Assembly: GCA_902570155.1 (NCBI GenBank) | Contig: CACFXU010000006.1 | Span: 7,215 to 71,214, forward strand | From: an uncultured Alphaproteobacteria bacterium | GTDB lineage: Bacteria > Pseudomonadota > Alphaproteobacteria > HIMB59 > GCA-002718135 | Length of the DNA: 64,000 nt | Direction of reading: 5' to 3' | Notes under the pieces: model-generated | The model's database searches: none | Told to the model about the DNA's origin: nothing | The model's input: the letters and a program-made list of their open reading frames with translations, nothing else | Shown: one piece after another, positions 12,767-29,555 of the stretch | How positions within the stretch are numbered: position 1 is the stretch's first letter | Layout of the letters: each line of letters opens with the position of its first letter | Made by a program: the position numbers and the translations under genes

Positions 12767-13683
12767 GTATAAAAACTCTTTGCAATCTTTGCAGCTAAAT
12801 TTGCATTATTAATTATTAAAGATACATTAGCATTTAGAGTTTGATTTTTTGATTGTTCGTTAATTTCTTTTATAAGAAATGGTGTTAATTCTTTTCCACT
12901 AATATTATTTCTATAAGCTTTTATTGTTGCATTATTTATCCATTTTTCTACATCATTTTTATTAAGCGCTTTTTCAAATGGAACTTTATTAAATATGAGA
13001 ATTGATTTTTTATTTTCTATATTTTCATTAAGTTTTAAAAAAGAAGAAATTTCATGAATTTCATCAAATTTATTATCGACTTTATTTTCTGTTTCTTCAT
13101 ACCAAAAACCAGGCATATAATTTGTTTGATAACCAATTCTTGTAATTCCTAAAGTTTCAAGAAGTTCATTTGTTTTACTTAAATCTAAAATAGATTTAGC
13201 ACCACTACAGATTACAAAATTTGAATTCTCAGAAAGTGCATATAGATCTGCAGATACATCATTGGTATTTTCAGCATTTAGATGCACACCACCAATTCCT
13301 CCTGTTGCAAAAAATCTTATTTGAAATTTAGAAGCTATAGAAATCGTACTTGCTACTGTCGTAGCAGCATTTTCTTTATTAAATATTGATAAATTTATGT
13401 TGTGGTTTGAAACTTTTTGTACATTTTTCTCTTTTGCTAATATTTGAATATCTTTTTGCGATAATCCTATTTTAACCTTACCTCTAATTATTCCTATTGT
13501 TGCAGCAATTGCACCGTTATCTTCAACAGCCTTTATAGACTCATTTGCGACTTTAATATTTTCTGGATAGGGCAATCCATGACTAATCAATGTACTTTCT
13601 AAAGCTACTATTGGTTTTTTTCTATTTATTGCTTCTTGAACTTTTTTACTTATCTCAAATATTTCATGCATACTATTGTACAC
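12763..13683 (-). CDS. psuG: Pseudouridine-5'-phosphate glycosidase
   Basis: 306 aa. IVALESTLISHGLPYPEN and GGIGGVH motifs of the indigoidine-synthase-A-like/PsuG family. Confidence 0.9.
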   Translation of the reverse strand: MYNSMHEIFEISKKVQEAINRKKPIVALESTLISHGLPYPENIKVANESIKAVEDNGAIAATIGIIRGKVKIGLSQKDIQILAKEKNVQKVSNHNINLSIFNKENAATTVASTISIASKFQIRFFATGGIGGVHLNAENTNDVSADLYALSENSNFVICSGAKSILDLSKTNELLETLGITRIGYQTNYMPGFWYEETENKVDNKFDEIHEISSFLKLNENIENKKSILIFNKVPFEKALNKNDVEKWINNATIKAYRNNISGKELTPFLIKEINEQSKNQTLNANVSLIINNANLAAKIAKSFYT

Positions 13684-14560
13684 TCACTTTCTTAGAAAGA
13701 TTTATAATTTTTAAAAAATCACTATTAGTTTTTAGACTTTTACCACTAGCATAATAAGATCCGCATGCTACAGAAGTTTTCAGAATATAATTCATTTTTT
13801 CATTTATACTGAACAAATACAGCATCATAGCTGCTAGTGCATCTCCAGCTCCATTTTCGTTTACTACTTTGATTGATGGGGGTTTTATTCTTTTTATAAA
13901 TTCATTACTTCCAAAGATTACATTATTTTTTGAATTAGTAGTAATTATTTTTATTTTTTTATTTTGTTTTAATATTTTTTTTACACCTACTATTATATTT
14001 GAAGAATTTGTAAGTTTAAGTAACTCTGCTTTATTTAAGAATATAAAATCAATTTTATTTATAATCCTTTTAATTTTAATTACTTTATGCACTGATGTTG
14101 CGCACACTATAATTTTATTTTTTTTTGATAGTTTATTTATTGATTTTTCCAAATAGGTTTTAGAAAAATTTAGATCAAATATTATATTTTTATTCTTGAT
14201 GTTTGGTATTTTTAAAGATTTATTATTTTCATATTCATCTGTGTTAGCTAATCCTAATAAAAATTTATTATTTTTATCTGATAAAGCTAAATAGTATCTA
14301 TCTGCATAACTTTTATTCACTTGATGAAAATATATTTTTTTTGAGATTTTTTTTCTAATCTCTTCATTGATAGCTAAACTATAAAAGTTTACATCAACAA
14401 AATTCGAAAGCAATTCTGCAATATTGTAGGCTACTCCACCAATTCTGCTTTTTTGTGTAATTTGATTAGATCTAAAATTAATAATATTTTTTTTAAGATT
14501 TAATAAATAATCGTGATGAATTGCCCCAATACAAACAAAAATGTTTTTAGATTTCAGCAT
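13673..14560 (-). CDS. psuK: PfkB-family carbohydrate kinase, probable pseudouridine kinase
   Basis: 295 aa. C-terminal NENGAGDALAA (the PfkB GAGD motif). 11-nt overlap with psuG immediately downstream. Confidence 0.7.
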   Translation of the reverse strand: MLKSKNIFVCIGAIHHDYLLNLKKNIINFRSNQITQKSRIGGVAYNIAELLSNFVDVNFYSLAINEEIRKKISKKIYFHQVNKSYADRYYLALSDKNNKFLLGLANTDEYENNKSLKIPNIKNKNIIFDLNFSKTYLEKSINKLSKKNKIIVCATSVHKVIKIKRIINKIDFIFLNKAELLKLTNSSNIIVGVKKILKQNKKIKIITTNSKNNVIFGSNEFIKRIKPPSIKVVNENGAGDALAAMMLYLFSINEKMNYILKTSVACGSYYASGKSLKTNSDFLKIINLSKKVSVQ

Positions 14561-17500
14561 TATGAACTATACACCTTTTATGTCAGTTTTTGATGTTGAT
14601 CCACCTATTATTGATAATAAACATTTAATTAAATGGTTAAAGATTAATTTTTCTTTCTTAAGAAATAAATTACTCAAAATTAAACAACTTGATAGTGAAA
14701 GGGACATAAATTTTATTATATTCATAAATAATAAAAAAAAATATGTATTAAAAATTTCAAACCCATCAGAAAAAATAAATATACTAAAATACCAAGATAG
14801 ATTAATTAATTATTTACGAAGTGATCTAAGTCTTAAATCTTTTATACCCAAAATATACCATACAAAGATTGTAAAATATTTAGATACAAAAAATAGAGAA
14901 TGCTTTGTTAGGATCTTATCTTATATTGAAGGGCGAATGTATGGAGATACCAAAAGTAACGATAAAATTGAAAATTCTTTAGGTAAGTTACTTGGAAAAG
15001 TATCAACTAAATTGCAAGCATTTAACCATATAGATGCTCATAGAAATTTTATTTGGGATCCATCAAATATAAAATGGATTAAAAAAGATATTAATATTTT
15101 TACAGGTTCAAAAAAATTAATTTTATTAAAATGTTTTTCAGAATATGAAAAATTTGTAAAAAATAATTTAAATAAATTAAGATATTCAATTACTCATTCA
15201 GATCCAAATAATTATAATATTGTTATTAAAAAAAATAATGTTTGTGGTTTACTAGATTATGGAGATTCTATTTATTCTCCAACAATAAATGATTTAGCTA
15301 TATGTCTTTCCTATGCATTAATGAATAATAATAATATTTATCTTACACTTAAAAATATAATCACAGAGTACAATAAACAGTTTTCTATTAATGAGGATGA
15401 AATTAATTCATTAATATCATTATGTAAGTCAAGACTTATGATTACTGTAGTAATGGCAAAAAAACAAAGAATTAAATATCCATCAAATCAATATTTAAGT
15501 ATTAGTGAGAAAGATGCCTGGTCTTTATTAGAAAAATTAGACAAAATTCCTATCAATTTTTTAATATATATTGTTCGCGAAATATGCGGCTTTGATATTA
15601 TTCACCACCATAATGAAACTATAAATTATATAAATAAATTCAACTTTGGTAATATTTTTAATTTTAATTTACTTGATAAAAATAAATCTATCTTAAAATT
15701 AAGTTCTGATTCACCTTTATTAAAAGGTAACCCAGATAATAGTTTGCTTAAGAAAAGAGTTAATAAAATATTTAAGGAAGATAATTCTCGTATAGGAATA
15801 GGTTTATACAATGAAAAAAGAAAAGTTTATAAGGGACCTAACTTTATTTCTGAATTAAATGCGAATGAAAGACGTAATATTCATTTAGGCGTAGATATCT
15901 TTATTGATCAAGGAACAGATTTATTTGCGCCAATAGATGGCAAAATTATAATTTTAAAAAATAATAATTTTAAATATGACTATGGTCCCACTCTAGTTTT
16001 GGAACATAGTTTTAAAAAATATAAATTTTATACTTTATACGGGCATTTATCCAAAATAATGTTTCAAAAACTAAAAATTGGAAAAAAAATTAAGAAAGGT
16101 GAATGGATTGGTAAAATTGGTAATTCTAATGAAAATGGAAAATGGTTACCACATTTACATTTTCAAATTATTTTAGATTTATTAGGACATGATAAGAATT
16201 TTCCAGGAGTAGGTGAAGAATTTTTATTCAATATTTGGAATAAAATTTCACCTGATCCAAATTTAATTCTACGAATTCCAAAATCTTTTTATTCTAATAA
16301 TAATAATTTTAAAGATACTTTAAAAAAAAGAAGAAAAAATATTTCTGATAATTTATCAATTTCTTATAAGGAACCTCTTCATATGCTTGAAGCTAAAGAT
16401 CAGTATTTTTTTGATAGATATGGCAGGAGATACTTAGATTGTGTAAATAATATTTCCCATGTTGGGCATTCAAATTCCTATGTACATGAAGCTATGACTA
16501 AGCAAAATTTAAAACTTAATACTAATACGAGATATCTATACGATACAATTAACGATTATAGTGAATTACTTTTAAGTAAGTTTCCAAAGAAATTAAATAA
16601 GATATTTTTCGTATGTACAGGATCTGAAGCTAATGATTTAGCTTATAGAATAGCTCAAACTTATACTAGTGCAAAAGATGTCTTTGTGATGGACAATGCT
16701 TATCATGGGCATACCAATGCTTTAATTGATCTAAGTCCATACAAATTTAATAGTAAGGGTGGTTTAGGTAAAAAAGATTATGTTCACGTATTAGATATGC
16801 CTGATCCTTTAAGAGGTAAGTGGAGATATCAAAATTCAAATTGGATTCAAAAATATATAGATGAAGCTAAAACAGTAATTAGAAATAAAATTAAAGAAAC
16901 AAAAATTGCATGTTTTTTTTCTGAAAGTATACTTGGTTGTGGTGGTCAAGTAATTCTTCCAAAAAATTATTTAAAAGAAATATTTTCAGAAATTAGAAAA
17001 AACAATGCATTATGTATTGTTGATGAAGTACAAACTGGTTTTGGACGCGTTGGAAGAAATTTTTGGTCATTTGAAGAGCATGATGTCGTTCCTGATATAG
17101 TAACCTTGGGAAAACCTATGGGTAATGGTCATCCTATAGCTGCTGTTATAACTACAGATAAAATAGCTTCAACTTTTAATAATGGGATGGAATATTTTAA
17201 TTCATTCGGTGGTAATCCCGTTTCCTGCGCTATCGGTAAAGCAGTATTAGAGACAATTGATAATAATAAATTACAAAAAAATGCTTTGTTAGTTGGTAAT
17301 TATTTTTTAAAAAAATTAAAAAAAATTCAACTTAAATATAAAAAATATATTAGTGAAGTTAGAGGTAGGGGGCTTTTTTTAGGAATAGATATTATTCAAA
17401 ATAGTAATGTGTCTAAACCAAACAAAAAATTAGCTAAATTGCTTATTAATTATATGAGAAATCAAGGTATTTTGTTGAGCACTGATGGCCCTTATGACAA

Positions 17501-17591
17501 TGTTATTAAAATAAAACCACCTCTTGTATTTACAAAATTAAATGTTGATCAGGTATGTAAAAACTTAGAAACCTTCTTTAAAAAATTATAA
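14541..17591 (+). CDS. Tri-domain protein: APH/hydroxylysine-kinase-like kinase + M23 peptidase + class-III aminotransferase-fold (phospho-lyase-like) domain
   Basis: 1016 aa. Kinase loop HSDPNNYN and DYGD. M23 motifs HLGVD, YGHLS and PHLHFQ. PLP domain with DEVQTGFGRVG and GKPMGNGHP. Alternative starts at ATG 14562 or 14580 would remove the 5' overlap with psuK. Confidence 0.85.
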   Translation: MFLDFSIMNYTPFMSVFDVDPPIIDNKHLIKWLKINFSFLRNKLLKIKQLDSERDINFIIFINNKKKYVLKISNPSEKINILKYQDRLINYLRSDLSLKSFIPKIYHTKIVKYLDTKNRECFVRILSYIEGRMYGDTKSNDKIENSLGKLLGKVSTKLQAFNHIDAHRNFIWDPSNIKWIKKDINIFTGSKKLILLKCFSEYEKFVKNNLNKLRYSITHSDPNNYNIVIKKNNVCGLLDYGDSIYSPTINDLAICLSYALMNNNNIYLTLKNIITEYNKQFSINEDEINSLISLCKSRLMITVVMAKKQRIKYPSNQYLSISEKDAWSLLEKLDKIPINFLIYIVREICGFDIIHHHNETINYINKFNFGNIFNFNLLDKNKSILKLSSDSPLLKGNPDNSLLKKRVNKIFKEDNSRIGIGLYNEKRKVYKGPNFISELNANERRNIHLGVDIFIDQGTDLFAPIDGKIIILKNNNFKYDYGPTLVLEHSFKKYKFYTLYGHLSKIMFQKLKIGKKIKKGEWIGKIGNSNENGKWLPHLHFQIILDLLGHDKNFPGVGEEFLFNIWNKISPDPNLILRIPKSFYSNNNNFKDTLKKRRKNISDNLSISYKEPLHMLEAKDQYFFDRYGRRYLDCVNNISHVGHSNSYVHEAMTKQNLKLNTNTRYLYDTINDYSELLLSKFPKKLNKIFFVCTGSEANDLAYRIAQTYTSAKDVFVMDNAYHGHTNALIDLSPYKFNSKGGLGKKDYVHVLDMPDPLRGKWRYQNSNWIQKYIDEAKTVIRNKIKETKIACFFSESILGCGGQVILPKNYLKEIFSEIRKNNALCIVDEVQTGFGRVGRNFWSFEEHDVVPDIVTLGKPMGNGHPIAAVITTDKIASTFNNGMEYFNSFGGNPVSCAIGKAVLETIDNNKLQKNALLVGNYFLKKLKKIQLKYKKYISEVRGRGLFLGIDIIQNSNVSKPNKKLAKLLINYMRNQGILLSTDGPYDNVIKIKPPLVFTKLNVDQVCKNLETFFKKL

Positions 17592-19383: not shown

Positions 19384-20322
19384 ATGAGCCATTTATTTTA
19401 TAAACCTGCAAAATCTAGATTACACAGAAGTGAATTGGCAGTTCCAGGCTCTAATACAAAGATGTTTGAAAAAGCATTAAAATCAAATGCCGATTATATT
19501 TTTTTAGATTTAGAAGATGCAGTATCTCCAAATGATAAAATTGATGCAAGAAAAAATGTTATAAATGCAATAAAAGAATACAATTGGAGAGAAGAAGGTA
19601 AAACAATCTCTATAAGAATTAACGGCTTGGATACACACTATATGTATCGTGATGTGATTGAAATTATAGAAGAGGTCGGTGATAAGATTGATACATTATT
19701 AATTCCAAAAGTAGGCTCATCATCTGATGTATATATGGTTGATTGTATGCTCAATCAAATTGAACAAAATAAAAAATTTAAAAATAGAATAGGTTTAGAA
19801 TGTTTAATTGAAACAGCACTAGGAATGTCTAACATCCAATCAATTGCAACATCAAGTTCTAGACTAGAAGCATTACACTTTGGAGTTGCAGATTATGCTG
19901 CAAGTATGCGAGCAAGAACTGTTGTCATAGGAGGTTTAAATCCTGATTATCCTGGTGATCAATGGCATCATGGCTTATCAACTTTAGTAATGACTTGTAG
20001 ATCATATGGCTTAAGAGCAATAGACGGACCTTTTGGAGACTTTAATGACAAACAAGGATATCTTGATGCAGCAAAAAGAGCGGCAGCAATTGGTTTTGAG
20101 GGTAAATGGGCAATACATCCATCGCAAATAGATTTAGCTAATGAAGTTTTTTCTCCGCCCAAAGCAGAAATAGATAAAGCAAAAAGAATATTATTAGAAT
20201 TAGAAAAAGCAGCTGCTGAAGGAAAGGGTGCTGCTCAGCTTGATGGAAGAATGATCGATGCTGCATCTGCAAGAATGGCTGAAAATATTGTAAATATTAA
20301 TAAGTTAATTGAAAGTAAGTAA
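19384..20322 (+). CDS. mcl: L-malyl-CoA/beta-methylmalyl-CoA lyase (HpcH/HpaI-CitE family)
   Basis: 312 aa. LDLEDAVSP, SIRINGLDT, IDGPFGDFND and GKWAIHPSQ match remembered Mcl1 sequences. Confidence 0.85.
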   Translation: MSHLFYKPAKSRLHRSELAVPGSNTKMFEKALKSNADYIFLDLEDAVSPNDKIDARKNVINAIKEYNWREEGKTISIRINGLDTHYMYRDVIEIIEEVGDKIDTLLIPKVGSSSDVYMVDCMLNQIEQNKKFKNRIGLECLIETALGMSNIQSIATSSSRLEALHFGVADYAASMRARTVVIGGLNPDYPGDQWHHGLSTLVMTCRSYGLRAIDGPFGDFNDKQGYLDAAKRAAAIGFEGKWAIHPSQIDLANEVFSPPKAEIDKAKRILLELEKAAAEGKGAAQLDGRMIDAASARMAENIVNINKLIESK

Positions 20323-21482
20323 TGGATATACACGAATATCAAGCAAAAAAAATATTGTCAGATTTTGGTGTTAAAATTCCCACTGGCGGTATTGTTTATA
20401 GTCCAGAAAATGCAGAAAATAAAGCTAGAGAAATTGGTGGTTCTAAATGGGTTGTAAAAGCGCAAGTTCACTCTGGTGCTAGAGGTAAAGCAGGAGGAAT
20501 TATAATATGTAATTCTCCGTTAGAAGTTGCCGATGCAACTGATAAATTGTTAGGTAAAAAATTAATTACAAAACAAACTGGTCCAGAGGGTAAGATAATA
20601 AATAGAATTTATATTGAAGAAGCAACTGATATCAAACATGAATTATATTTAGGTTTAGTGTTTGATAGATCTTCAGAAAGTATAATGGTTGTAGCCTCAA
20701 CAGAAGGTGGAATGAGTGTCGAAGAAATTTCAAAAGAAAAACCTGAAACAATTATACGATCTAAAATAGAAGTAGCAGTTGGTATTCAACAATTTCAAGC
20801 AAGAGAAATAGCTTTTGGTTTAGGAATTGAATCCAAATTGATCTCAAGAGCTGCAAATACAATTATTGGTTGTTATAAAGCTTTTAGTGAGCTTGATGCA
20901 ACAATGGTTGAAGTTAACCCATTAGTTGTATCACACCAAGATGAAATACTAGCATTAGATTGTAAAATGAGTTTTGATAATAATGCAATGTTTAGAAGAG
21001 ATGAAATTGCAGAACTTAGAGATAAAACACAAGAAAATATAAATGAAGTTTATGCTTCTGACAGAGGTATGAATTATGTAAGCTTAGATGGGAATATTGG
21101 TAATATTATTAATGGTGCAGGCTTAGCAATGGCTTCAATGGATATGATAAAACTTGCTGGTGGTGAACCTGCAAATTTTTTAGATGTTGGCGGAGGTGCA
21201 ACACCTGAAAAAATAGTTAAAGCTTTTAAATTAATATCGATGGACACAAAAGTTAAGGTAATATTAGTTAATATATTTGCGGGGATTAACAGATGTGATT
21301 GGGTTGCAGAAGGAATTGTTCAAGCTTTATCAAAAATTGACATTAAACATCCTTTAGTTATACGTTTAGCTGGAACTAACGTCGAAAAGGGAAATGAAAT
21401 ACTTAAAAAAAGCAATATAAATTACATTGAAGCATCAACTTTAGAAGATGCAGCAAATAAAGCAGTGAAGGCTCTTGGATAA
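20322..21482 (+). CDS. mtkA: Malate--CoA ligase (malate thiokinase) beta subunit; SucC paralogue
   Basis: 386 aa ATP-grasp. QQFQAREIAF, KMSFDNNAMFRR and NIFAGINRCDWVAEG (21270-21314) match my memory of MtkA rather than SucC (NIFGGIVRCD). Context directly after mcl. Confidence 0.8.
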   Translation: MDIHEYQAKKILSDFGVKIPTGGIVYSPENAENKAREIGGSKWVVKAQVHSGARGKAGGIIICNSPLEVADATDKLLGKKLITKQTGPEGKIINRIYIEEATDIKHELYLGLVFDRSSESIMVVASTEGGMSVEEISKEKPETIIRSKIEVAVGIQQFQAREIAFGLGIESKLISRAANTIIGCYKAFSELDATMVEVNPLVVSHQDEILALDCKMSFDNNAMFRRDEIAELRDKTQENINEVYASDRGMNYVSLDGNIGNIINGAGLAMASMDMIKLAGGEPANFLDVGGGATPEKIVKAFKLISMDTKVKVILVNIFAGINRCDWVAEGIVQALSKIDIKHPLVIRLAGTNVEKGNEILKKSNINYIEASTLEDAANKAVKALG

Positions 21483-21484
21483 TC

Positions 21485-22381
21485 ATGTCTATAATCATTC
21501 ACAAAAATACAAAGATTTTAGTCCAAGGTTTCACTGGAAAAATTGGAAGTTTTCATGCTGAAGAAATGATTAAGTATGGTTCTAACGTTGTTGGCGGGGT
21601 AACACCTGGTAAGGGTGGCATGACTCATTTAAATCTTCCTGTTTTTAATACTGTTAAAGAAGCTGTAGATCAAACTGGAGCATCAACATCAATTTTATTT
21701 GTCCCACCAGCCTTTGCAGCTGACTCAGCAATGGAAGCTGCTGATGCAGGTATTAAGACCTGTGTGGCTATTACTGACGGTATTCCATCTCATGATATGG
21801 TTAAAATAAAAAGATACATGAGAAGATATCCAAAAGATAAAAAAATGGGATTAGTAGGTCCAAATTGTGCAGGAATAATTAGTCCTGGTAAATCTATGTT
21901 AGGTATTATGCCTGGCCACATTTACAAAGAAGGTAAAATAGGAATAGTTAGTAGATCTGGCACTTTGGGATATGAAGCTGCACAACAACTTAAAGATTTG
22001 GAAATTGGTGTTTCAACAAGTGTGGGTATAGGAGGTGATCCAATAAATGGAAGTTCTTTTAGAGATATAATTGAAAAGTTTGAAAATGATGATGAAACTA
22101 TTGCAGTTTTAATGATAGGTGAAATAGGTGGCCCACAAGAAGTTGAAGCTGGACAATTTGCTAAAGAAAATATGAATAAACCAGTAATTGCGTATATAGC
22201 AGGACTAACTGCACCTAAAGGTCGTGTCATGGGGCATGCTGGCGCAATTGTTTCTGCTTATGGTGAAAGCGCAATAGAAAAAGTAGAACTTCTTAAAGAG
22301 TGTGGAGTTACAATTTCCAAAAACCCTTCTGTAATGGGTGAAACTGTAAAAAAAGTATTAGTAGAAAATAATTTGAATTAA
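21485..22381 (+). CDS. mtkB: Malate--CoA ligase alpha subunit; SucD paralogue
   Basis: 298 aa. CoA-binding GFTGK, SRSGTLGYE and the phospho-His loop GHAGA. Confidence 0.8.
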   Translation: MSIIIHKNTKILVQGFTGKIGSFHAEEMIKYGSNVVGGVTPGKGGMTHLNLPVFNTVKEAVDQTGASTSILFVPPAFAADSAMEAADAGIKTCVAITDGIPSHDMVKIKRYMRRYPKDKKMGLVGPNCAGIISPGKSMLGIMPGHIYKEGKIGIVSRSGTLGYEAAQQLKDLEIGVSTSVGIGGDPINGSSFRDIIEKFENDDETIAVLMIGEIGGPQEVEAGQFAKENMNKPVIAYIAGLTAPKGRVMGHAGAIVSAYGESAIEKVELLKECGVTISKNPSVMGETVKKVLVENNLN

Positions 22382-22589: not shown

Positions 22590-23153
22590 ATGAAATTATA
22601 TCTTATTAGACATGCAGAGTCAGAAGCCAATGCAGCATCAGATTTAGATAATCCAACTTATTATTATGATGCAAGAATTACTCAAAGAGGAATTGAGCAA
22701 GCAAAAAAATTAAATAATAGAATTAAAAATCTCAAATTTGATAATTATTTTTGTTCCCCCTTAACAAGAACATTGGAAACATTCTCTATTGTTTTTCCAT
22801 CTAATAAACCTGTAATTGAACCATTAATAAGAGAACATTTGTATCACTCATGTGATGTAGGAAGACAACCAAAAAAATTAAAAAAAGAATTTAATGATTT
22901 TGATTTTAATAATTTAAATGATTTTTGGTGGAATAATAACAAACCCATAAATGAAAAAAAAATTATACAAGAGTCTCACAATGATATTAAAATGAGATTA
23001 AGGTCTTTTCTGCTATCTATCAAAAAACTTAATTTACAAAAAATTGTATTGGTCAGTCATGGTACATTCTTAAGTCAAATAACTGAATATATGCTGGATA
23101 ACTGTGAGGTATATGATTGTGAGTACAACGAGGTATATGAAAAATTTTTTTAA
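22590..23153 (+). CDS. Histidine phosphatase family protein (phosphoglycerate mutase/CobC-like superfamily)
   Basis: 187 aa. LIRHAESEAN (the RHG-type motif), SPLTRTLET and VSHGTFL. Confidence 0.8.
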   Translation: MKLYLIRHAESEANAASDLDNPTYYYDARITQRGIEQAKKLNNRIKNLKFDNYFCSPLTRTLETFSIVFPSNKPVIEPLIREHLYHSCDVGRQPKKLKKEFNDFDFNNLNDFWWNNNKPINEKKIIQESHNDIKMRLRSFLLSIKKLNLQKIVLVSHGTFLSQITEYMLDNCEVYDCEYNEVYEKFF

Positions 23154-23176: not shown

Positions 23177-23944
23177 CTAAAACATCTCATTTATTATTTT
23201 ATTTAATTTTTGTGTTACTATATCAATTATTTTTTTTCCTATCTGTGCATTGGATTTTCTAGGATCTCCAATAATTCCACTTTTACTTAATTCTTTAGTT
23301 ACCCAAGCTTTCTTAATATTTTTCTCATAAGAAATGGTTTTAGATGATAAATAATCGGGAGATAATCTATGTTTTGAAATTTTAGATTGCCTAACTAGGT
23401 TTGGAAATAAATATAACATAATAGATGTTTCAAATTCTCCACCGTGATAACCAAAGTCTTTTTCTTTACTTGATATAATCCCTTTAAATTGATCAAATAA
23501 AAAATATGTGCCTTTTACTATGTTTATCTTAAATTCTGATTTTAATTCTTTAGCAATAATATCTATATGACTAATTTGTCCACCATGACTATTTAAAAGT
23601 AATATATTTTTAAATTTCAATTTACATACATTTTCTAAAATTGACAAAGAGTGAGATATAAATTCAAATGAATCAATACTTATAGTTCCATCAAAATCTG
23701 TATGTTCAGCAGCTGAACCAAAATATATTTCAGGCATAATTAAATATTTATTTGAATTATATTTTTTATTGAATTCTAATAATATTCCTTCAAGAATTTT
23801 TTTATCAGTATTTAATGGAAGGTGCGGACCATGTTGTTCTATTGATGAAAATGGGAAAATTAAAACTGTTTTTCTATTTATTTTTTTAATTTCACTTGTT
23901 GTTAATTCTTCCCAAAAGTTTGTTAGCATTTTTTTATTATACAT
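23177..23944 (-). CDS. Creatininase-fold amidohydrolase family protein
   Basis: 255 aa. SSIEQHGPHLPLNTD, NSHGGQ and GGEFETS motifs of the creatininase/ArfB/MftE family. Confidence 0.8.
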   Translation of the reverse strand: MYNKKMLTNFWEELTTSEIKKINRKTVLIFPFSSIEQHGPHLPLNTDKKILEGILLEFNKKYNSNKYLIMPEIYFGSAAEHTDFDGTISIDSFEFISHSLSILENVCKLKFKNILLLNSHGGQISHIDIIAKELKSEFKINIVKGTYFLFDQFKGIISSKEKDFGYHGGEFETSIMLYLFPNLVRQSKISKHRLSPDYLSSKTISYEKNIKKAWVTKELSKSGIIGDPRKSNAQIGKKIIDIVTQKLNKIINEMF

Positions 23945-23957
23945 TTATAAGTAAATT

Positions 23958-24917
23958 ATGAAATCTTATTCTTTATGGATTGATAAAAAAAAACAAGCTA
24001 AAATTTATCAAAAAAAACTTGTTTACAATAAAAACAACAAAACAGTTTTAGTTAAAACTATTTATTCAGGTATTAGCAAGGGAACTGAAAAATTAGTTTC
24101 ATCTAAAAACGTAAGTAAGGATCAATTTGAATTAATGAAAGCTCCATTTCAAGAGGGTTCTTTTAACTTACCTATAAAATACGGCTATATAAATGTTGGG
24201 AATATTATCGATGGCCCAAGGAAATATATAAATAAAAAAATATTTAGTCTTTATCCTCATCAAGATTTATATGAAATTTCTATTCAAAATTTAATTTTTC
24301 TACCAAAAGGAAATTTGAGAAAATATATTCTTACTGCAAATATGGAAACAGCAATTAATATCTTTTGGGACGCTCAATCTAAAAGTAATCACAAAATTCT
24401 AATTGTAGGGCTTGGCTCTGTAGGATTATTAACTGCATTTTTTTTTAAAATTAATGGATATAAAGATGTTTATGTTTTTGATAATAATAAAAATAAAAGA
24501 AAAATTGCTAATTATTTAGGATTAAATTTTATTGACATAAGAAAGATTGAGAAAATAGATGTAGCAATAAACACTACGGCTAATTATAAAGTTTTAAATG
24601 CTTTAATGGAAAAATTATCTATCGAAGGAAAAATAGTAGAAGCTAGTTGGTATGGTAAAAATAAAGGAGAAGTTTCCTTAGGCGGGTATTTTCATTCTAA
24701 AAGATTAAAAATAATTAGCTCACAGGTATCTAAAATACCAAAATACATGAAAAATAAATATGATTTTGAGCGGAGATTAAAATTAGCAATTAAATCTTTA
24801 AAAAATTCAAAATTAGAAAAATTAATTACTAGTGAAAGTAATTTTTTTGATTTAGAAAAAGATTACTATAAAATCCTTCAAAATAAGGATACAATAATGC
24901 ATCTAATTAAATATTAA
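23958..24917 (+). CDS. MDR-superfamily dehydrogenase-like protein lacking the catalytic-zinc cysteine
   Basis: 319 aa. GroES-like N-terminus with SGISKGTE where zinc ADHs have GICGSD. Rossmann motif IVGLGSVGLL. Confidence 0.6.
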   Translation: MKSYSLWIDKKKQAKIYQKKLVYNKNNKTVLVKTIYSGISKGTEKLVSSKNVSKDQFELMKAPFQEGSFNLPIKYGYINVGNIIDGPRKYINKKIFSLYPHQDLYEISIQNLIFLPKGNLRKYILTANMETAINIFWDAQSKSNHKILIVGLGSVGLLTAFFFKINGYKDVYVFDNNKNKRKIANYLGLNFIDIRKIEKIDVAINTTANYKVLNALMEKLSIEGKIVEASWYGKNKGEVSLGGYFHSKRLKIISSQVSKIPKYMKNKYDFERRLKLAIKSLKNSKLEKLITSESNFFDLEKDYYKILQNKDTIMHLIKY

Positions 24918-24919
24918 TT

Positions 24920-25318
24920 ATGTATTCTATAAAAGTAAGAGAAAATATTCTAATAGCTCATTCTTTACCTGGAGAAGTATTTGGACCAGCCCAAAATATG
25001 CATGGAGCTACATATTTAGTAGATGCAGAATTTTTCACTGATAAACTTAATAAATACAATATAATTATGGATTTAGGAATAGTGTCCACGACTTTAAAAG
25101 ATATTCTTAAAATATATAATTATCAAAATTTAGATGAAATTGGTGAATTTAAGGGTAAAATTACCTCAACAGAGTTTTTAGCAGAGGATATCTGCAATAA
25201 GATCTTGAATAGACTAAGAAATGAATTCTCTGAAGATTATAAATCTTTAAAAAAAATTAAAATAACCTTGCAAGAATCAAATGTTGCATGGGCATCATAT
25301 GAAAAAGAGGTTATCTAA
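24920..25318 (+). CDS. Divergent 6-pyruvoyl-tetrahydropterin synthase/QueD-fold (T-fold) protein
   Basis: 132 aa. IAHSL...MHGATYLVD aligns with the PTPS pattern A-H-x-L...H-G-H-x-Y, but the second His of HGH is Ala and no catalytic Cys is evident. Confidence 0.65.
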   Translation: MYSIKVRENILIAHSLPGEVFGPAQNMHGATYLVDAEFFTDKLNKYNIIMDLGIVSTTLKDILKIYNYQNLDEIGEFKGKITSTEFLAEDICNKILNRLRNEFSEDYKSLKKIKITLQESNVAWASYEKEVI

Positions 25319-26345
25319 AAATAAATCTGATATTTATTTTGTTTATCCAGGAAATATTAATGCAAAAACTGGAGGATATATTTATGAAAAAAATATCCTA
25401 GAATATGCAAAGATAAGAGATATAAATATTAGACCAATTGCTCTAAGTGAAAATTATCCTTTTCCTACAAATAACGATATAAAATATTTTCTAAAAATTT
25501 TAGATAAAATTGATTCTGACTCTCAAATTATCATAGATGGATTAGCTTTAGAAGGAATGTATTCAATTTTTAAAAAATTACTTACTTATAATGTCATTGC
25601 ACTGATACATCATCCTTTATATCTTGAATTTAAAAGTCATAGGTCAAAAAAATTCTTACGATTAGAAAAAGAAAATTTCAAAAAAATAAATAAATTTATT
25701 GTGACTTCTAAAAATACAAAAAATTTATTAATAAATGAATTTAAGGTACTAAATAATAAAATTTCTGTAGTTGAACCTGGTATAGAAAGACTTGCAAAAT
25801 ATAATTTTAAAAATAATAGTAAAATTCATTTTTTAACATGTGGAAGTATAATAAATAGAAAAAATTATCTTTTTTTATTAAAAGTTTTAAAGCCTTTAGA
25901 TAATTTTATATTAGAAATTGTTGGTGATACTACAAGAGATATAAGTTATTACAAAAAACTCAAAAAATTTATTTCTAAAAATTCAATGAACAGAAAAATA
26001 ATATTCCATGGTACTATTTCAGATACAAAATTAGCTAAATTATATTCTAAAACAGATTGTTACATTTCAGTAAGTAAATATGAAGGTTTTGGTATGTCTT
26101 TAGCAAATGCATTAATAATTAAAAAGCCAATTATAACCTTTTTTACTAATACCATCTTAAATACACTAGGAAAAAAGGGTGTTATTTATTTCAAAAAATT
26201 TGAAGTAAATGATCTTAGAAATATAATTATTAAAAATATATTAAATAAAAAAAATTTTAAAAAACTAAATATTGATATTCAAAAAAATAAAAGATATCTT
26301 CTTACTCCTCTAGAGTCAGCAAAGAAATTTGTTAAATTAATTTAA
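25299..26345 (+). CDS. Glycosyltransferase, group 1 (GT-B fold)
   Basis: C-terminal YEGFGMSLANALIIKKPII (the E-x7-E-type motif). The last available ATG (25299) still overlaps the upstream gene by 20 nt; the longer ORF starts at 25281. Confidence 0.7.
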   Translation: MKKRLSKNKSDIYFVYPGNINAKTGGYIYEKNILEYAKIRDINIRPIALSENYPFPTNNDIKYFLKILDKIDSDSQIIIDGLALEGMYSIFKKLLTYNVIALIHHPLYLEFKSHRSKKFLRLEKENFKKINKFIVTSKNTKNLLINEFKVLNNKISVVEPGIERLAKYNFKNNSKIHFLTCGSIINRKNYLFLLKVLKPLDNFILEIVGDTTRDISYYKKLKKFISKNSMNRKIIFHGTISDTKLAKLYSKTDCYISVSKYEGFGMSLANALIIKKPIITFFTNTILNTLGKKGVIYFKKFEVNDLRNIIIKNILNKKNFKKLNIDIQKNKRYLLTPLESAKKFVKLI

Positions 26346-26346
26346 T

Positions 26347-27135
26347 ATGCATGAATTTCAAAATAAATGGTTAAATCTTAGAGAAACTGTCGATAGAAAG
26401 TCAAGAAACAAAAGAATACTATATTTAATTAATAAATTTTTTAAAAATAAAAAAAATATTAGAATAATTGACTTAGGTTCAGGTGCTGGATCTAATTATA
26501 GATTTCTTAAGTCACAATTATTAAATAATCAATATTGGTCTTTTGTAGACATATCACATCAATCAACAAATTATTTTAAAAAAAATATAAAATTATCATC
26601 TAAAATAAAAAAAACTAATTTTAAAATTGTTGATGTAATTAATAATCTAGAAAAAATAAATTTTAATAATTATAATTTAGTCACTGGTTCTGCTTTTTTA
26701 GATATTCTTCCAAAAACATGGTTTAAAAATTTTCATAAATTAAATGTTGATACAGAAATTGTCTACTTTGCCTTAAATTATAACGGTAATTTCAAATTTT
26801 TTCCCAAACACAAGGATGATAAAAAAATTCTTAATATTTTTAATAAAGATCAAAAATCTGACAAAGGAATAGGGGAAGTGGCCGTTGGACCAGATTGCAC
26901 TGAATTAATAAATAATGTATTTGAAAGAACCCACAAAACATATGTTTTAGACTCTACATGGGATGTTAGTAAAAATTATGAATTTCAAATTTATTTCTTA
27001 AATTTTTGTAGAGAAATTATTCAAAAAAATAAACTTAACTTTGATGATTGGTTAAAATTTCGTTTAAAATGTATTAAACAAAAAAATTCTAAATTTATTT
27101 TAAATAATACAGATTTTTTAGCTATTAAGAAATAA
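26347..27135 (+). CDS. Class I SAM-dependent methyltransferase
   Basis: 262 aa. Motif I IIDLGSGAGSN. Confidence 0.65.
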   Translation: MHEFQNKWLNLRETVDRKSRNKRILYLINKFFKNKKNIRIIDLGSGAGSNYRFLKSQLLNNQYWSFVDISHQSTNYFKKNIKLSSKIKKTNFKIVDVINNLEKINFNNYNLVTGSAFLDILPKTWFKNFHKLNVDTEIVYFALNYNGNFKFFPKHKDDKKILNIFNKDQKSDKGIGEVAVGPDCTELINNVFERTHKTYVLDSTWDVSKNYEFQIYFLNFCREIIQKNKLNFDDWLKFRLKCIKQKNSKFILNNTDFLAIKK

Positions 27136-27951
27136 ATTAACTATAATTTCATTTTCTAATTCATTAAAATTATGTTTTGGTCTGATAGCTTTATTGAGAT
27201 TTGAGATTTCTTTTAAATTTAATGAATTAATTCCGGAACCTATTAATATTGGGGCAATCATAAATTGAAGAATATCAATATATTTATTATTTATTAATTC
27301 TGAAATAGTTTTTGACCCTCCCTCTACTAAAATATTTTTATATTTAAGTTTTTTTATTTGCGTAATTAAGTTTTTAGTAAAATTTTTTTCTTTTAATCTT
27401 ATTATTGTTGAATTATTCAATCTAATTTTTTTATTACTTTTTGTAAAAATTATATTTTCATTACCGTCATTAAATATTTTATATTTATTATTTAGCGAAA
27501 GACTACCATCGATAATAATTCTTTTTGGATTTGTGCCCTTTATTTTTCTTGTTGTTAATAGGGGATCGTCTTTTTTAATGGTATTTGAACCTACAATAAT
27601 TGCATCACTGATACTTCGTAAACAATGTAGATAAATAATACTCTTGGGGTTATTTATGTAATGTGAATTACCATTATTTAACGCAATTCTACCATCAATA
27701 CTTTGTCCTATCTGAGCTATTACTAATTTTTCGTTTTTTCTTAGTATTGGGACAAGGATATTTAAGATTGATTGATAAAATTTACTTATATTAATTTTAG
27801 TTTCCAGATTATTATTTACTATGTAAAAGTTACTATTTCTTTTTGATGATAAAGAAATACTATTCTTTTTAACCAATAAATATAGATCACTATTCTTTTT
27901 AGAATTTTTTATAAAATCCAGTAAAATTCCTATATTTTTTGATGTAATCAT
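27118..27951 (-). CDS. RibD C-terminal-domain (pyrimidine reductase-like) protein without deaminase domain
   Basis: 277 aa. AQIGQSIDGRIA, AIIVGSNTIKKDDPLLT, RIIIDGSL and LVEGGSKT match the RibD_C/DHFR-like reductase fold. The roughly 75-aa N-terminal extension has no HAE...PCxxC deaminase motif. Confidence 0.75.
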   Translation of the reverse strand: MITSKNIGILLDFIKNSKKNSDLYLLVKKNSISLSSKRNSNFYIVNNNLETKINISKFYQSILNILVPILRKNEKLVIAQIGQSIDGRIALNNGNSHYINNPKSIIYLHCLRSISDAIIVGSNTIKKDDPLLTTRKIKGTNPKRIIIDGSLSLNNKYKIFNDGNENIIFTKSNKKIRLNNSTIIRLKEKNFTKNLITQIKKLKYKNILVEGGSKTISELINNKYIDILQFMIAPILIGSGINSLNLKEISNLNKAIRPKHNFNELENEIIVNLFLNS

Positions 27952-27987
27952 TTGTTTTTATTACAATTATATCTATATAAAGTCTTC

Positions 27988-29109
27988 ATGAGTTTCAAAT
28001 CTAATACAGGAACTATAATAGATAGGGCAATTAATGAACTCAGGACCGGAAGACCCTTAATAATTCAGAATAACAAGGAATATTGGATATTCTTTAATAT
28101 AGAGCATTCCCAAAGTAAAATTTTTAACCAATTCAATAAGCACTTAATTGATGAAAAATATCTACTTATTACTAAACAAAAAGCTCAATCAATTTTTAAT
28201 AAGAATATTAAAAGTAATGTTTATTTTGAGATAAACCCTAAAACAGATGTAAATCAAATAATAAATTTATTTGTTAATCCTCTTAGTAATAATAAAGTAA
28301 TTAAATTTACCAATATTAAAAAATTCAAAGCTAAAAATTTTCATAATGTTTGTATTGATCTTTCCAAAAATGCTAAAATGATACCATCGCTAGTTTTTAA
28401 AAAAATTAATAAAAAATATTACAAAAATATAAATGAATTTGGATTTAAGAATGGAATTTTAATATTCGATTACAAAGATTTATTGAAGCAAAATGAATTA
28501 ATTTGTGAAAGTATCAAATTAGTTTCTAGTGCAAAAGTTCCACTACCAAAAAATGAAAATTCTAATTTTAAAATATTCAAATCATATATTGGATCTGATA
28601 AACATGTAGCGATAATTGTTAATCCAAAAAAAATAAATAAAAAATCTGTTAATTTAAGAATACATTCAGCTTGTTTTACAGGTGATATTTTTCATTCTTT
28701 AAAATGTGATTGTGGTGAACAGTTAAATCAATCAATCAATTACATGGTTAGAAATAATGGTGGAATTATATTATATTTAGAACAAGAAGGTAGGGGAATA
28801 GGATTAGCTAATAAAATGAGGGCTTATTCTCTTCAAGCAAGGGGAATGGATACAATAGACGCCGATCATAATATTGGTTTTTTAGATGATGAAAGAGATT
28901 TTAATATTGCAGCTAGAATACTGAAATTATTAAAAATAAATAAAGTTAATCTTATTACAAATAATAAAAATAAAATAAATTCTATTAAGAAAGCTGGAAT
29001 TAAAGTCGAAAATCAAATAAATACAAAGCCAACATTGAATAAATTTAATAAAAATTATTTTAAAACAAGAGTTAAAAAAGCTGGGTACGGTCTTAAACTA
29101 GTAGTATAA
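27988..29109 (+). CDS. GTP cyclohydrolase II with an additional degenerate N-terminal domain
   Basis: The C-terminal half matches RibA: HSACFTGDIFHSLKCDCG (Cys codons at 28672, 28705, 28711), EQEGRGIGLANKMRAYSLQ (Tyr codon at 28825) and DERDF. The start is set at ATG 27988; the track ORF starts at TTG 27952. Confidence 0.85.
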   Translation: MSFKSNTGTIIDRAINELRTGRPLIIQNNKEYWIFFNIEHSQSKIFNQFNKHLIDEKYLLITKQKAQSIFNKNIKSNVYFEINPKTDVNQIINLFVNPLSNNKVIKFTNIKKFKAKNFHNVCIDLSKNAKMIPSLVFKKINKKYYKNINEFGFKNGILIFDYKDLLKQNELICESIKLVSSAKVPLPKNENSNFKIFKSYIGSDKHVAIIVNPKKINKKSVNLRIHSACFTGDIFHSLKCDCGEQLNQSINYMVRNNGGIILYLEQEGRGIGLANKMRAYSLQARGMDTIDADHNIGFLDDERDFNIAARILKLLKINKVNLITNNKNKINSIKKAGIKVENQINTKPTLNKFNKNYFKTRVKKAGYGLKLVV

Positions 29110-29111
29110 TT

Positions 29112-29555
29112 ATGAAAAAAATTCCTAAGATAAAACTTCAATTAACAAACGATAATGAGTTTGATTCATCTAAATTAAATAATAAAACAGTTTTATTCTT
29201 TTACCCTAAGGCGTTAACTGGCGGATGCTCAGTAGAAGTTGCAGATTTTCAGAAATATTTAACAAAATTTAATAAAATTGGCTTTGATGTAATAGGAGCT
29301 TCTAAAGATCCTGTTGATCGGAATAAAAAATTTTTAGATAAGTATAAATTGAAATACCCACTTGGTTCGGATGAAGGAAAAAATTGTGATAAACTTGGTA
29401 TTTGGATAGAAAAATCTATGTATGGTAGGAAATATTTTGGGATAGATAGATCTACATTTGTAATCGATAAAAATGGAAAAATTCTAAATTCTTGGAATAA
29501 AGTTAAAGTTAAAGGTCATGTTGAAGAAGTTTATAATTTTTGTAAGGATCAGTAA
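29112..29555 (+). CDS. bcp: Thiol peroxidase Bcp (peroxiredoxin)
   Basis: 147 aa. FFYPKALTGGCSVE carries the peroxidatic Cys, with GASKD following. Confidence 0.85.
   Translation: MKKIPKIKLQLTNDNEFDSSKLNNKTVLFFYPKALTGGCSVEVADFQKYLTKFNKIGFDVIGASKDPVDRNKKFLDKYKLKYPLGSDEGKNCDKLGIWIEKSMYGRKYFGIDRSTFVIDKNGKILNSWNKVKVKGHVEEVYNFCKDQ

Follow-up and report, generated by a model that had tools for sequence, protein, structure and literature searches.

A SAR11 member of the SCO6650/PTPS-IV gene cluster family: candidate genes for a glycosylated, methylated compound derived from GTP

A seven-gene cluster that includes GTP cyclohydrolase II

The DNA analysed here is a 64-kb stretch (64,000 nucleotides, referred to below as the window) of contig CACFXU010000006.1, from an uncultured alphaproteobacterium, and the subject is a block of seven tightly packed genes within it, one of which encodes a GTP cyclohydrolase II (GCH II). 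The other six encode a creatininase-fold metal amidohydrolase, a member of the medium-chain dehydrogenase/reductase (MDR) superfamily, a T-fold protein of the 6-pyruvoyltetrahydropterin synthase (PTPS) family, a glycosyltransferase (GT), a methyltransferase (MT) dependent on S-adenosylmethionine (SAM) and a paralog of the RibD_C pyrimidine reductases (Table 1). The block is a SAR11 member of the SCO6650/PTPS-IV cluster family, which is conserved and biochemically unsolved; in NCBI nr, proteins nearly identical to those of the cluster bear the name Pelagibacterales or Pelagibacteraceae.

An ORF check of the window found all seven open reading frames (ORFs) called in an initial annotation of this DNA, at the same coordinates and on the same strands. 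The spacing described there, from 20-nt overlaps to a 36-nt gap, also holds: the PTPS and GT genes overlap by 38 or 20 nt according to which of two in-frame ATG codons, at 25281 and 25299, starts the GT gene, the MT and RibD_C genes are convergent and overlap by 18 nt (window 27118-27135), and 36 nt separate the RibD_C gene from the GCH II gene. The GCH II ORF could start at a TTG codon at 27952 (385 aa) or at an ATG at 27988 (373 aa), the ATG being the codon from which its relatives are called. The creatininase and MDR genes are divergent and only 13 nt apart (window 23944-23958), so their promoters must lie inside coding sequence. A promoter scan returned 58 promoter-like sites against 68 expected and no terminators, a result that is uninformative in AT-rich DNA; the G+C content is 26.7% for the window and 22.3% for the cluster.

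Proteins were assigned with Pfam and NCBIfam (June 2026). The domain assignments made initially agree with Pfam except for the label GT1-type, as the glycosyltransferase matches Glycos_transf_1, which we take to correspond to CAZy family GT4. The seven cluster proteins all score below the cut-offs of specific NCBIfam models, save for a match to the generic 'GTP cyclohydrolase II RibA' subfamily model, and no specific or curated NCBIfam model was matched by the MDR, PTPS, GT or MT genes. As had been noted at the outset, genes that would finish riboflavin are missing from the cluster: lumazine synthase, riboflavin synthase and a deaminase, like GTP cyclohydrolase I (GCH I), are absent across the 64-kb window, where no protein matched DMRL_synthase or Lum_binding, and 3,4-dihydroxy-2-butanone 4-phosphate (DHBP) synthase is not intact. 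The remaining window genes are housekeeping genes (htpG, uvrA, ssb, gyrA, recG, mfd, metG, tmk, secD and others). An Rfam scan of the window returned tRNAs only, and a flavin mononucleotide (FMN) riboswitch is absent there and from four other cluster loci.

Table 1. Coordinates of the cluster genes, of their neighbours and of features on other loci, with the number of the 62 tabulated loci at which each cluster gene was found
Feature	DNA	Position	Strand	Supporting match	Loci (of 62)
Creatininase-fold metal amidohydrolase	window	23177..23944	-	Pfam Creatininase, E 8e-55	40 (39 with GCH II as well)
Cys-less MDR-superfamily NAD(P) dehydrogenase/reductase	window	23958..24917	+	Pfam ADH_zinc_N and Glu_dehyd_C, weak	61 (adjoining PTPS gene)
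PTPS-IV (SCO6650-type) T-fold protein	window	24920..25318	+	Pfam PTPS, E 2e-20	
GT4-family glycosyltransferase	window	25281..26345 (alternative start 25299)	+	Pfam Glycos_transf_1, E 9e-19	at least 40 (tblastn)
Class-I SAM-dependent methyltransferase, cluster-specific family	window	26347..27135	+	generic methyltransferase Pfam matches, weak	55
Deaminase-less RibD_C pyrimidine reductase paralog	window	27118..27951	-	Pfam RibD_C, E 2.5e-31	28
Degenerate, presumably inactive RibB-like N-terminal domain of GCH II protein	window	27988..28560	+	hhalign against E. coli RibB	
Catalytic GTP cyclohydrolase II domain	window	28561..29109	+	Pfam GTP_cyclohydro2, E 1.5e-48	40
Histidine-phosphatase family protein, upstream neighbour	window	22590..23153	+	Pfam His_Phos_1, E 6e-23	
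BCP/PrxQ-type peroxiredoxin	window	29112..29555	+	Pfam AhpC-TSA, E 3e-26	
GCH II with Ile at the switch position, Halomonas halmophila	L066	14207-15400			
rib operon examples on AT-rich marine contigs	L181; L203; L207	1131-4183; 4356-7909; 4353-7913			
Extra-member examples (LPG_synthase_TM, cytochrome b561, FkbM or PEMT-like)	L025; L044; L017; L055; L038	11534-12475; 12272-13372; 12743-14302; 11255-11842; 12281-12949			

The initial annotation regarded the cluster as an orphan, and this description has to be withdrawn. The gap that the family represents was first noticed around 2006, and SCO6655 is a GCH II homolog encoded near SCO6650 in Streptomyces coelicolor. Spoonamore, Bandarian and co-workers (2006, 2008) reportedly found SCO6650 to be without Zn and without PTPS activity. 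The structure of an ortholog of the T-fold protein has been deposited (PDB 3D7J), and a PTPS-IV neighbourhood containing PF00925 and PF01872, with FGPAQ as the PTPS-IV signature, was published in 2017 (PMC5445326). The window matches that neighbourhood, with GTP_cyclohydro2 (PF00925) and RibD_C (PF01872) both within 3 kb. The statement that no pathway can be named for this set of genes still stands: full-text literature searches gave no paper characterising the cluster, and its core genes are those without a specific NCBIfam match.

Conservation of the cluster across bacteria

A HMMER search with the PTPS-like protein gave 1042 cluster representatives at E <= 0.001, mostly of ~130 aa and with 40-50% identity, and one genome per species was scanned with search patterns derived from a 12-sequence alignment. 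The PTPS-like gene is present in at least 600 genome stretches or species, of which 599 were confirmed. The seven proteins of the window were compared by tblastn with the best 80 of these at least 600 loci, and the 62 that had enough flanking DNA, from six taxonomic groups, provide the counts in Table 1. Among the best 80 are SAR11 single-cell genomes, Rhizobiales, Rhodobacterales, Halomonas, Salinicola, Marinobacter, Wenzhouxiangella and Hydrogenophaga, together with Gemmatimonadota, Bacteroidota, many Streptomyces and other actinobacteria. The closest matches of the PTPS-like protein are SAR11 relatives only, and SAR11 single-cell genomes have the same genes in the same order with 50-99% protein identity.

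The core order MDR-PTPS-GT-MT is nearly invariant in Alpha- and Gammaproteobacteria, Actinomycetota, Gemmatimonadota and Bacteroidota, with the GT gene directly after the PTPS gene in proteobacterial, Gemmatimonadota, Bacteroidota and Streptomyces loci. The tblastn count for GT is an underestimate; Pfam confirms a GT in Streptomyces and in Marinoscillum, where tblastn was weak or failed. GCH II and creatininase genes lie beside the core in SAR11, Gammaproteobacteria, Gemmatimonadota and 28 of the 30 Actinomycetota loci. Chance adjacency of the cluster genes is excluded, and the seven genes are a co-conserved unit that recurs as a whole in SAR11 and, as a core, across phyla.

Members of the core families also occur fused to one another. 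One protein of 1032 aa (P0256) joins PTPS-IV to the MT family of the cluster (E 1.5e-12) and to its MDR family (E 1e-62), and has a transit-peptide-like N-terminus and a HAD-like stretch, DMDGVL, recognised by eye; a second (P0140) joins three PTPS-IV domains to an MT. Such fusions, which may be eukaryotic in source, support a functional link among the core genes. Further long PTPS-IV fusion proteins were seen (P0144, P0125, P0123). Some of the fusion proteins have three tandem PTPS-IV domains, an arrangement that would constitute a single-chain T-fold trimer.

Outside SAR11 the cluster has additional members (examples in Table 1). A flippase-like LPG_synthase_TM gene follows the MT gene at 43 of 82 loci (Actinomycetota, Gammaproteobacteria, Gemmatimonadota and some Rhizobiales), and genes for cytochrome b561 (7 loci), an FkbM-type methyltransferase (15 loci), an IMPase-family phosphatase (2 Rhodobacterales loci) and a PAP2 protein (1 locus) are also found. 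In Marinoscillum the order is RibD_C-MDR-PTPS-GT, followed by a PEMT-like membrane methyltransferase and after it two more methyltransferases. No LPG_synthase_TM, cytochrome b561, FkbM or PEMT-like gene was detected within 10 kb of the cluster in SAR11. These membrane members, described here for the first time, hint that the product is membrane-associated or exported, since it is a flippase-like protein or a membrane methyltransferase that accompanies the cluster in other phyla.

GCH II, the creatininase-fold protein and the RibD_C paralog

In its 385-aa form the GCH II protein has its GTP_cyclohydro2 match at residues 193-356, which leaves an N-terminal domain of ~190 aa. All 11 residues equivalent to E. 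coli R49, C54, C65, C67, E92, R94, K101, Y105, D126, R128 and K154 are present. The protein scores 218 bits with NCBIfam NF001591, 'GTP cyclohydrolase II RibA', above the cut-off of 148, and matches a second model of the same name, PRK08815, end to end with 267 bits, below its 464-bit cut-off. The N-terminal domain had no credible direct PDB sequence match and required a family profile; with an 8-sequence profile, hhalign aligned it to E. coli RibB over 144 columns (probability 83.7%, E 8e-6). Judged by this alignment, in which the acidic DDEDRENEGD loop is missing, the domain is a degenerate, presumably inactive DHBP synthase, an identification that is new here, and such a domain is a feature of proteobacterial GCH II copies.

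The switch residue of GCH II (E. coli Tyr105) is Tyr at 13 loci, those of SAR11, Gammaproteobacteria, Gemmatimonadota and Agaricicola. It is Met at 26 actinobacterial loci, His at 4 actinobacterial loci and Ile at one, in Halomonas halmophila (L066), and appears to have been replaced several times independently. Spoonamore et al. are said to have found in 2006 that S. coelicolor SCO6655, with Met in place of Tyr, makes the N5-formyl product.

The creatininase-fold protein falls below every NCBIfam cut-off (104 bits with MftE, 77 with creatininase and 29.7, against a cut-off of 180, with ArfB, NF033501), and a near-identical protein in nr is named 'creatininase family protein [Pelagibacteraceae bacterium]'. 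Aligned to Pseudomonas creatininase it keeps EQHG-H...D, SHGG and HGGEFETS, that is, most of the metal-binding and catalytic motifs. Its fold is that of ArfB and BrbF, and it is a candidate formamidase for a formylated GCH II product, or a hydrolase for some other cyclic amide. BrbF deformylates the formylated product of GCH II or GTP cyclohydrolase III (GCH III) and is essential for riboflavin in Sinorhizobium meliloti and Brucella (PMC9478397).

The RibD_C paralog has no deaminase domain and starts with a poorly conserved N-terminal extension of ~75 aa. Its scores are 113.8 bits with TIGR00326 (cut-off 156.35) and 92.6 bits with TIGR01508, the archaeal reductase model (cut-off 186.45). In bacterial RibD a Lys selects the deaminated substrate. 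At the position of this residue, Lys151 in Bacillus subtilis RibG, Thermotoga maritima RibD (2HXV) has Lys, the archaeal 2,5-diaminopyrimidinone reductases 2AZN and 6P8C have Asn, and the window protein has Gln; Gln or His is found in all 18 of the cluster orthologs aligned. This residue state, which is new here, fits a reduction that would take place before, or without, deamination.

The MDR, T-fold, GT and MT core

The MDR protein is without any Cys. It shows a GxGxxG motif and, besides this, numerous invariant residues specific to its family; the sequence GISRGTE presumably stands at the place of the classical Zn-Cys motif of MDR proteins. No direct PDB sequence match was found and a family profile was needed. 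Built from 26 orthologs, the profile matched L-iditol, sorbitol, butanediol and galactitol-1-P dehydrogenases (E 1e-10 to 1e-8), and because these polyol dehydrogenases are its closest relatives the match suggests that the MDR acts on a polyol side chain such as ribityl.

The T-fold protein matches a single solved structure, PDB 3D7J, 'Uncharacterized protein SCO6650' (phmmer E 1.2e-33, residues 1-129, ~47% identity). In the family F21, G22 and A24 are invariant and P23 nearly so, giving the consensus FGPAQ-x-HGA where QueD and PTPS have CxxxHGH, with H28-G29-A30 in place of HGH. When aligned by hhalign to a sequence taken to be that of E. coli QueD, Cys27 is replaced by Ala, His33 by Ala and Asp70/His71 by Asn/Tyr, so that the catalytic Cys is lost together with the Asp-His dyad and one Zn-binding His, and two His and the Glu of the T-x-E motif are kept. 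This Glu anchors the 2-amino-4-oxopyrimidine ring in T-fold enzymes. As it is retained, the ligand is probably guanine-, pterin- or diaminopyrimidinone-like, with a chemistry that would differ from that of PTPS.

The GT and MT are family-specific and have no informative relatives. The best NCBIfam match of the Streptomyces GT ortholog is the MshA model, far below cut-off. The MT family alignment has DxGxGxG and many specific invariant residues, and its profile gave generic weak matches only in the PDB (best E 2e-4), with no close solved structure.

A proposed pathway from GTP

Proceeding from homology, residue states, gene order and co-conservation, all of which are observed, to substrates and a product, every one of which we infer, we propose that the seven genes form a supply module that would feed a tailoring module, and that the product would keep a 2-amino-4-oxopyrimidine or pterin-like ring. 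We regard the proposal as evenly poised between being right and being wrong. In the supply module, as family membership and residues suggest, GCH II would open GTP to 2,5-diamino-6-ribosylamino-4(3H)-pyrimidinone 5'-phosphate or its N5-formyl form, the creatininase-fold hydrolase would take off the formyl group as ArfB and BrbF do, and the RibD_C paralog, like the archaeal and fungal reductases, would reduce ribosyl to ribityl with the 2-amino group still present. The tailoring steps would follow in an order that is not fixed. The Zn-less T-fold protein would bind the 2-amino-4-oxopyrimidine moiety and, with the polyol-dehydrogenase-like MDR, would rearrange or oxidise the phosphorylated C5 side chain and may close a pterin ring; a phosphatase would strip the phosphate, the SAM methyltransferase would add a methyl group and the GT4 protein a sugar. 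The end product is likely to be membrane-associated or exported. The retained anchoring Glu makes a pterin-like or diaminopyrimidine-derived, glycosylated and methylated molecule, as suggested in the initial annotation, a fair guess. Retention of the 2-amino group, on which that guess was built, is conjecture, as the T-fold protein or the amidohydrolase could be a deaminase.

A phosphorylated intermediate probably needs a phosphatase. The histidine-phosphatase gene upstream of the cluster, the synteny of which is confined to the closer SAR11 loci, is a possible accessory phosphatase that may belong to the pathway; at other loci there are an IMPase-family gene, in Roseovarius (L012), and the DMDGVL stretch of the P0256 fusion.

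Several of these features could also be parts of a GCH I-independent pterin route, in which the ribosyl or ribityl diaminopyrimidine would be converted to a 2'-keto (Amadori-type) compound, by reduction plus MDR oxidation or directly on the T-fold protein, and would cyclise to a dihydroneopterin-phosphate-like pterin that ends as a methylated pterin glycoside. GCH I, PTPS and QueD all work on pterins with the T-fold scaffold, and the cluster protein retains the anchoring Glu; the MDR is similar to polyol dehydrogenases, phosphatase-type genes recur nearby, and the GT belongs to Glycos_transf_1, which is also the family of the cyanobacterial pteridine glycosyltransferases. However, a side chain that is first reduced and then re-oxidised is a roundabout solution, pterin ring closure from a GCH II product is without known precedent, the PTPS catalytic residues are missing and there is no pterin reductase in the cluster. 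We consider this route distinctly unlikely.

Relation to housekeeping riboflavin synthesis

Metagenome contigs were searched with an AT-biased back-translation of the DHBP-synthase motif DEDRENEGD. Contigs with 25-28% G+C were found to carry an operon, glyA-nrdR-ribD-ribE-ribB(A)-ribH-nusB (examples in Table 1), in which RibD is complete, with the deaminase motifs HAE and PCxxC read and TIGR00326 above cut-off, and the RibB domain is intact, with TIGR00506 above cut-off. In the C-terminal GCH II-like domain of the same protein the three Zn-binding Cys are all gone, as are most catalytic residues, in ~116 of 116 homologs; the protein is annotated by JGI/IMG as DHBP synthase/GTP cyclohydrolase II despite its dead GCH II half. 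This RibB(A) family is very abundant in marine metagenomes, with at least 8000 candidates, and also occurs in single-cell genomes that share an accession series with cluster-bearing ones. The operon is very probably the rib operon of SAR11. If it is, SAR11 would have two complementary, half-dead descendants of RibBA, one with a live RibB and a dead GCH II and the other with a dead RibB and a live GCH II, a pairing that is new here. Because the GCH II domain of the rib operon is dead, the cluster GCH II is probably the only active one in the cell, serving also as the housekeeping RibA, and so would probably supply the canonical RibD-RibE-RibB-RibH encoded elsewhere. The creatininase-fold gene could be a riboflavin formamidase of the BrbF type (PMC9478397).

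The initial annotation had reasoned that the cluster would be simply housekeeping if its ribA- and ribD-type genes were the only ones in the genome. This is probably the case for GCH II and is not the case for RibD, of which SAR11-type rib operons encode a complete copy, and, as the other genes are co-conserved across phyla, the cluster is not reduced to housekeeping. A canonical rib set elsewhere, also anticipated there, was found as ribD-ribE-ribB(A)-ribH on SAR11-type contigs, with the GCH II half dead and with no single assembly, among those looked up, having both loci.

With riboflavin genes in play, the cluster might instead be an archaeal-style upper pathway to riboflavin or a deazaflavin precursor, with PTPS-IV as the missing pyrimidine 2-deaminase that yields 5-amino-6-ribitylaminouracil phosphate, and with the MDR, GT and MT acting on this compound or on a derived lumazine. 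The reaction order would match that of ArfA, ArfB and ArfC, a 2016 review, citing unpublished work, states that PTPS-IV is involved in F420 synthesis, and S. meliloti without ribBA is still prototrophic, its alternative enzymes being unidentified (PMC9478397). Against this, SAR11-type genomes already have a complete RibD with its deaminase domain, riboflavin synthesis needs neither a GT nor an MT, and no FMN riboswitch is present at the cluster in the window or at the four other loci scanned. We also know of no T-fold deaminase, and judge this explanation improbable.

A separation of the seven genes into two unrelated adjoining units is a further alternative: a riboflavin entry unit of GCH II, a BrbF-like formamidase and perhaps the reductase, next to an envelope or lipid glycosylation-methylation operon (MDR, T-fold, GT and MT, with a flippase elsewhere) that does not use GTP-derived intermediates. 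The cluster GCH II is probably the only active one in SAR11, in other Alphaproteobacteria neither GCH II nor creatininase goes with the core, the GT is found together with flippase-like and PEMT-like membrane proteins, and BrbF, with the same fold as the cluster hydrolase, is required for riboflavin in S. meliloti and Brucella (PMC9478397). Unrelated units would not account for GCH II and creatininase genes beside the core in SAR11, Gammaproteobacteria, Gemmatimonadota and nearly all of the Actinomycetota loci, nor for a Gln/His RibD_C paralog that joins the core even where GCH II does not (6 of 12 other alphaproteobacterial loci). The actinobacterial cluster GCH II has an altered switch residue, and Streptomyces have separate canonical GCH II genes besides the cluster copy. 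The T-fold protein, which would belong to the second unit, keeps the Glu that anchors purines and pterins. On balance we find the two-unit arrangement unlikely.

The supply-and-tailoring proposal has its own difficulties. SAR11 and other proteobacterial GCH II keep the Tyr that gives a deformylated product in canonical enzymes, and if the product is already deformylated the creatininase-fold enzyme is left without its proposed substrate. A Methylobacterium creatininase homolog, which may or may not be the ortholog of the cluster gene, failed to complement a brbF mutant (PMC9478397). At the 12 alphaproteobacterial loci outside SAR11, GCH II lies beside the core once and creatininase never, the core being alone or with RibD_C only. 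Having no catalytic residues, the T-fold protein could serve for binding and not for catalysis, and lipid or envelope glycosylation would likewise suit the GT, the flippase-like protein and the membrane methyltransferase. Among the SAR11-type contigs looked up, none belongs to an assembly with both the rib operon and the cluster. All of these points weigh against the proposal.

We suggest, a little short of even confidence, that the cluster makes an undescribed compound derived from GTP, a 2-amino-pteridine or ribitylaminopyrimidine bearing a sugar and a methyl group. This compound may be membrane-associated or exported and may act as a cofactor or redox mediator, and the pathway would be that of at least 600 species from five or more bacterial phyla, with eukaryote-like fusions besides; as a corollary, a RibB-dead GCH II with a creatininase-fold hydrolase would be the 'missing' BrbG/BrbF entry into riboflavin in Alphaproteobacteria. 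If this is true, a seven-gene branch off the first steps of vitamin B2 synthesis makes a novel compound across a very broad range of bacteria with an aerobic life. SAR11 is the most abundant bacterium of the ocean. Its retention of the cluster in a streamlined genome argues for a real physiological role, as SAR11 keeps almost nothing that is not needed. Solving the cluster would give the PTPS-IV subfamily of T-fold proteins a function and possibly identify the missing cyclohydrolase of the BrbF route. In metabolic models of SAR11, the 'RibBA' calls would need correcting, the cyclohydrolase domain being dead there and the real RibA probably being in the cluster.

Neighbouring genes

The peroxiredoxin gene begins 2 nt after the GCH II stop codon and is probably co-transcribed. 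It adjoins the cluster in the closest SAR11 loci only, is absent from L008-L010 and from all other phyla, and so is not a conserved cluster member. Its position, and that of the cluster at the source of reactive aminopyrimidines, would suit a damage-control or salvage system in which reactive riboflavin intermediates are detoxified by reduction, methylation and glycosylation. Seven dedicated genes exceed the known repair systems, though, only the nearest SAR11 relatives share the peroxiredoxin link, and the dedicated, neofunctionalised GCH II of actinobacteria points to synthesis, so that we give this explanation hardly any credence.

Upstream of the cluster, at window 19384-22381, three packed co-directional genes encode an HpcH/HpaI-family C-C lyase (malyl-CoA/citryl-CoA lyase-like) and two ATP-grasp/CoA-ligase subunits (succinyl-CoA synthetase/malate thiokinase-like); they have 92-100% identity in the closest SAR11 loci and do not lie beside the cluster in L008-L010. 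These malyl-CoA-lyase-like and CoA-ligase-like genes raised the possibility of methanopterin (H4MPT) biosynthesis, which was rejected as the synteny is SAR11-only and the cluster is present in Streptomyces, Halomonas and others, for which no H4MPT pathway is known to us.

Elsewhere in the window, the region 11750-14560 encodes an inosine-uridine nucleoside hydrolase, an Indigoidine_A protein (pseudouridine-5'-phosphate glycosidase family) and a PfkB kinase, a set that suggests pseudouridine or nucleoside catabolism. A 1016-aa ORF (14541-17591) has an ortholog in L001 that joins APH (aminoglycoside/choline-kinase-like), Peptidase_M23 and a class-III aminotransferase in an unusual fusion. ORFs at 3087-4250 (387 aa) and 54584-55519 (311 aa) have no Pfam match at E <= 1e-5.

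Comparison with known systems

The closest relative is the SCO6650/SCO6655 cluster of S. coelicolor, which has an orthologous T-fold protein; Streptomyces loci have the MDR, PTPS, GT and MT genes, RibD_C in some, creatininase and GCH II. The actinobacterial GCH II differs in being short, without the RibB-like domain and with Met or His at the switch position, and a flippase-like protein is added. Pterin glycoside pathways of cyanobacteria and Chlorobium employ GCH I, a catalytically complete, Zn-containing PTPS and pteridine glycosyltransferases of Glycos_transf_1. They share with the cluster the glycosyltransferase family and a PTPS-family protein, whereas GCH I is not in the window and the cluster protein has lost the PTPS catalytic residues.

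Burkholderia make toxoflavin with the GCH II ToxB, the RibD-type enzyme ToxE, which has a deaminase domain, and the methyltransferase ToxA, and the tox genes include no T-fold, MDR, GT or creatininase gene. There too, a GCH II devoted to the pathway, an enzyme of the RibD family and methylation with SAM draw riboflavin intermediates off into a secondary product; the present cluster is, however, without a deaminase domain, and its seven ORFs all belong to other families, which leaves none for ToxC or ToxD. The pyrimidine glucosides vicine and convicine of faba bean and the fungal russupteridines, which are 2-amino-8-ribityl-pteridines, are made from diverted GCH II-derived or 2,5-diamino-6-ribitylaminopyrimidinone intermediates. 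These systems are eukaryotic, we know of no homologous gene set in them and the resemblance is chemical only, although they do establish that the type of chemistry predicted here exists.

The archaeal ArfA/ArfB/ArfC pathway is similar in the proposed order of reactions, in the fold of the ArfB hydrolase and in a RibD_C-family reductase without the bacterial Lys. Its first enzyme is a GCH III and not, as here, a GCH II, and the hydrolase and reductase of the cluster are far below the ArfB and archaeal-reductase cut-offs. No linkage of the archaeal arf genes to genes for an MDR, a T-fold protein, a GT or an MT is known to us. With the canonical rib operon the cluster has in common a GCH II that looks competent, as judged by its residues, and it is missing the RibD deaminase domain, an active DHBP synthase, lumazine and riboflavin synthases and the FMN riboswitch.

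In the BrbF route (S. meliloti SMc02977, Brucella Bab2_0247), as in the pathway proposed here, a bacterial creatininase-fold enzyme acts directly after the opening of the GTP ring; brbF, in contrast, adjoins marR and cobW genes with no PTPS-IV core (PMC9478397), and its likeness to the window protein is that of a shared Creatininase fold. A RibB-dead GCH II of the kind encoded in the window is an obvious candidate for the missing partner cyclohydrolase of BrbF, 'BrbG'.

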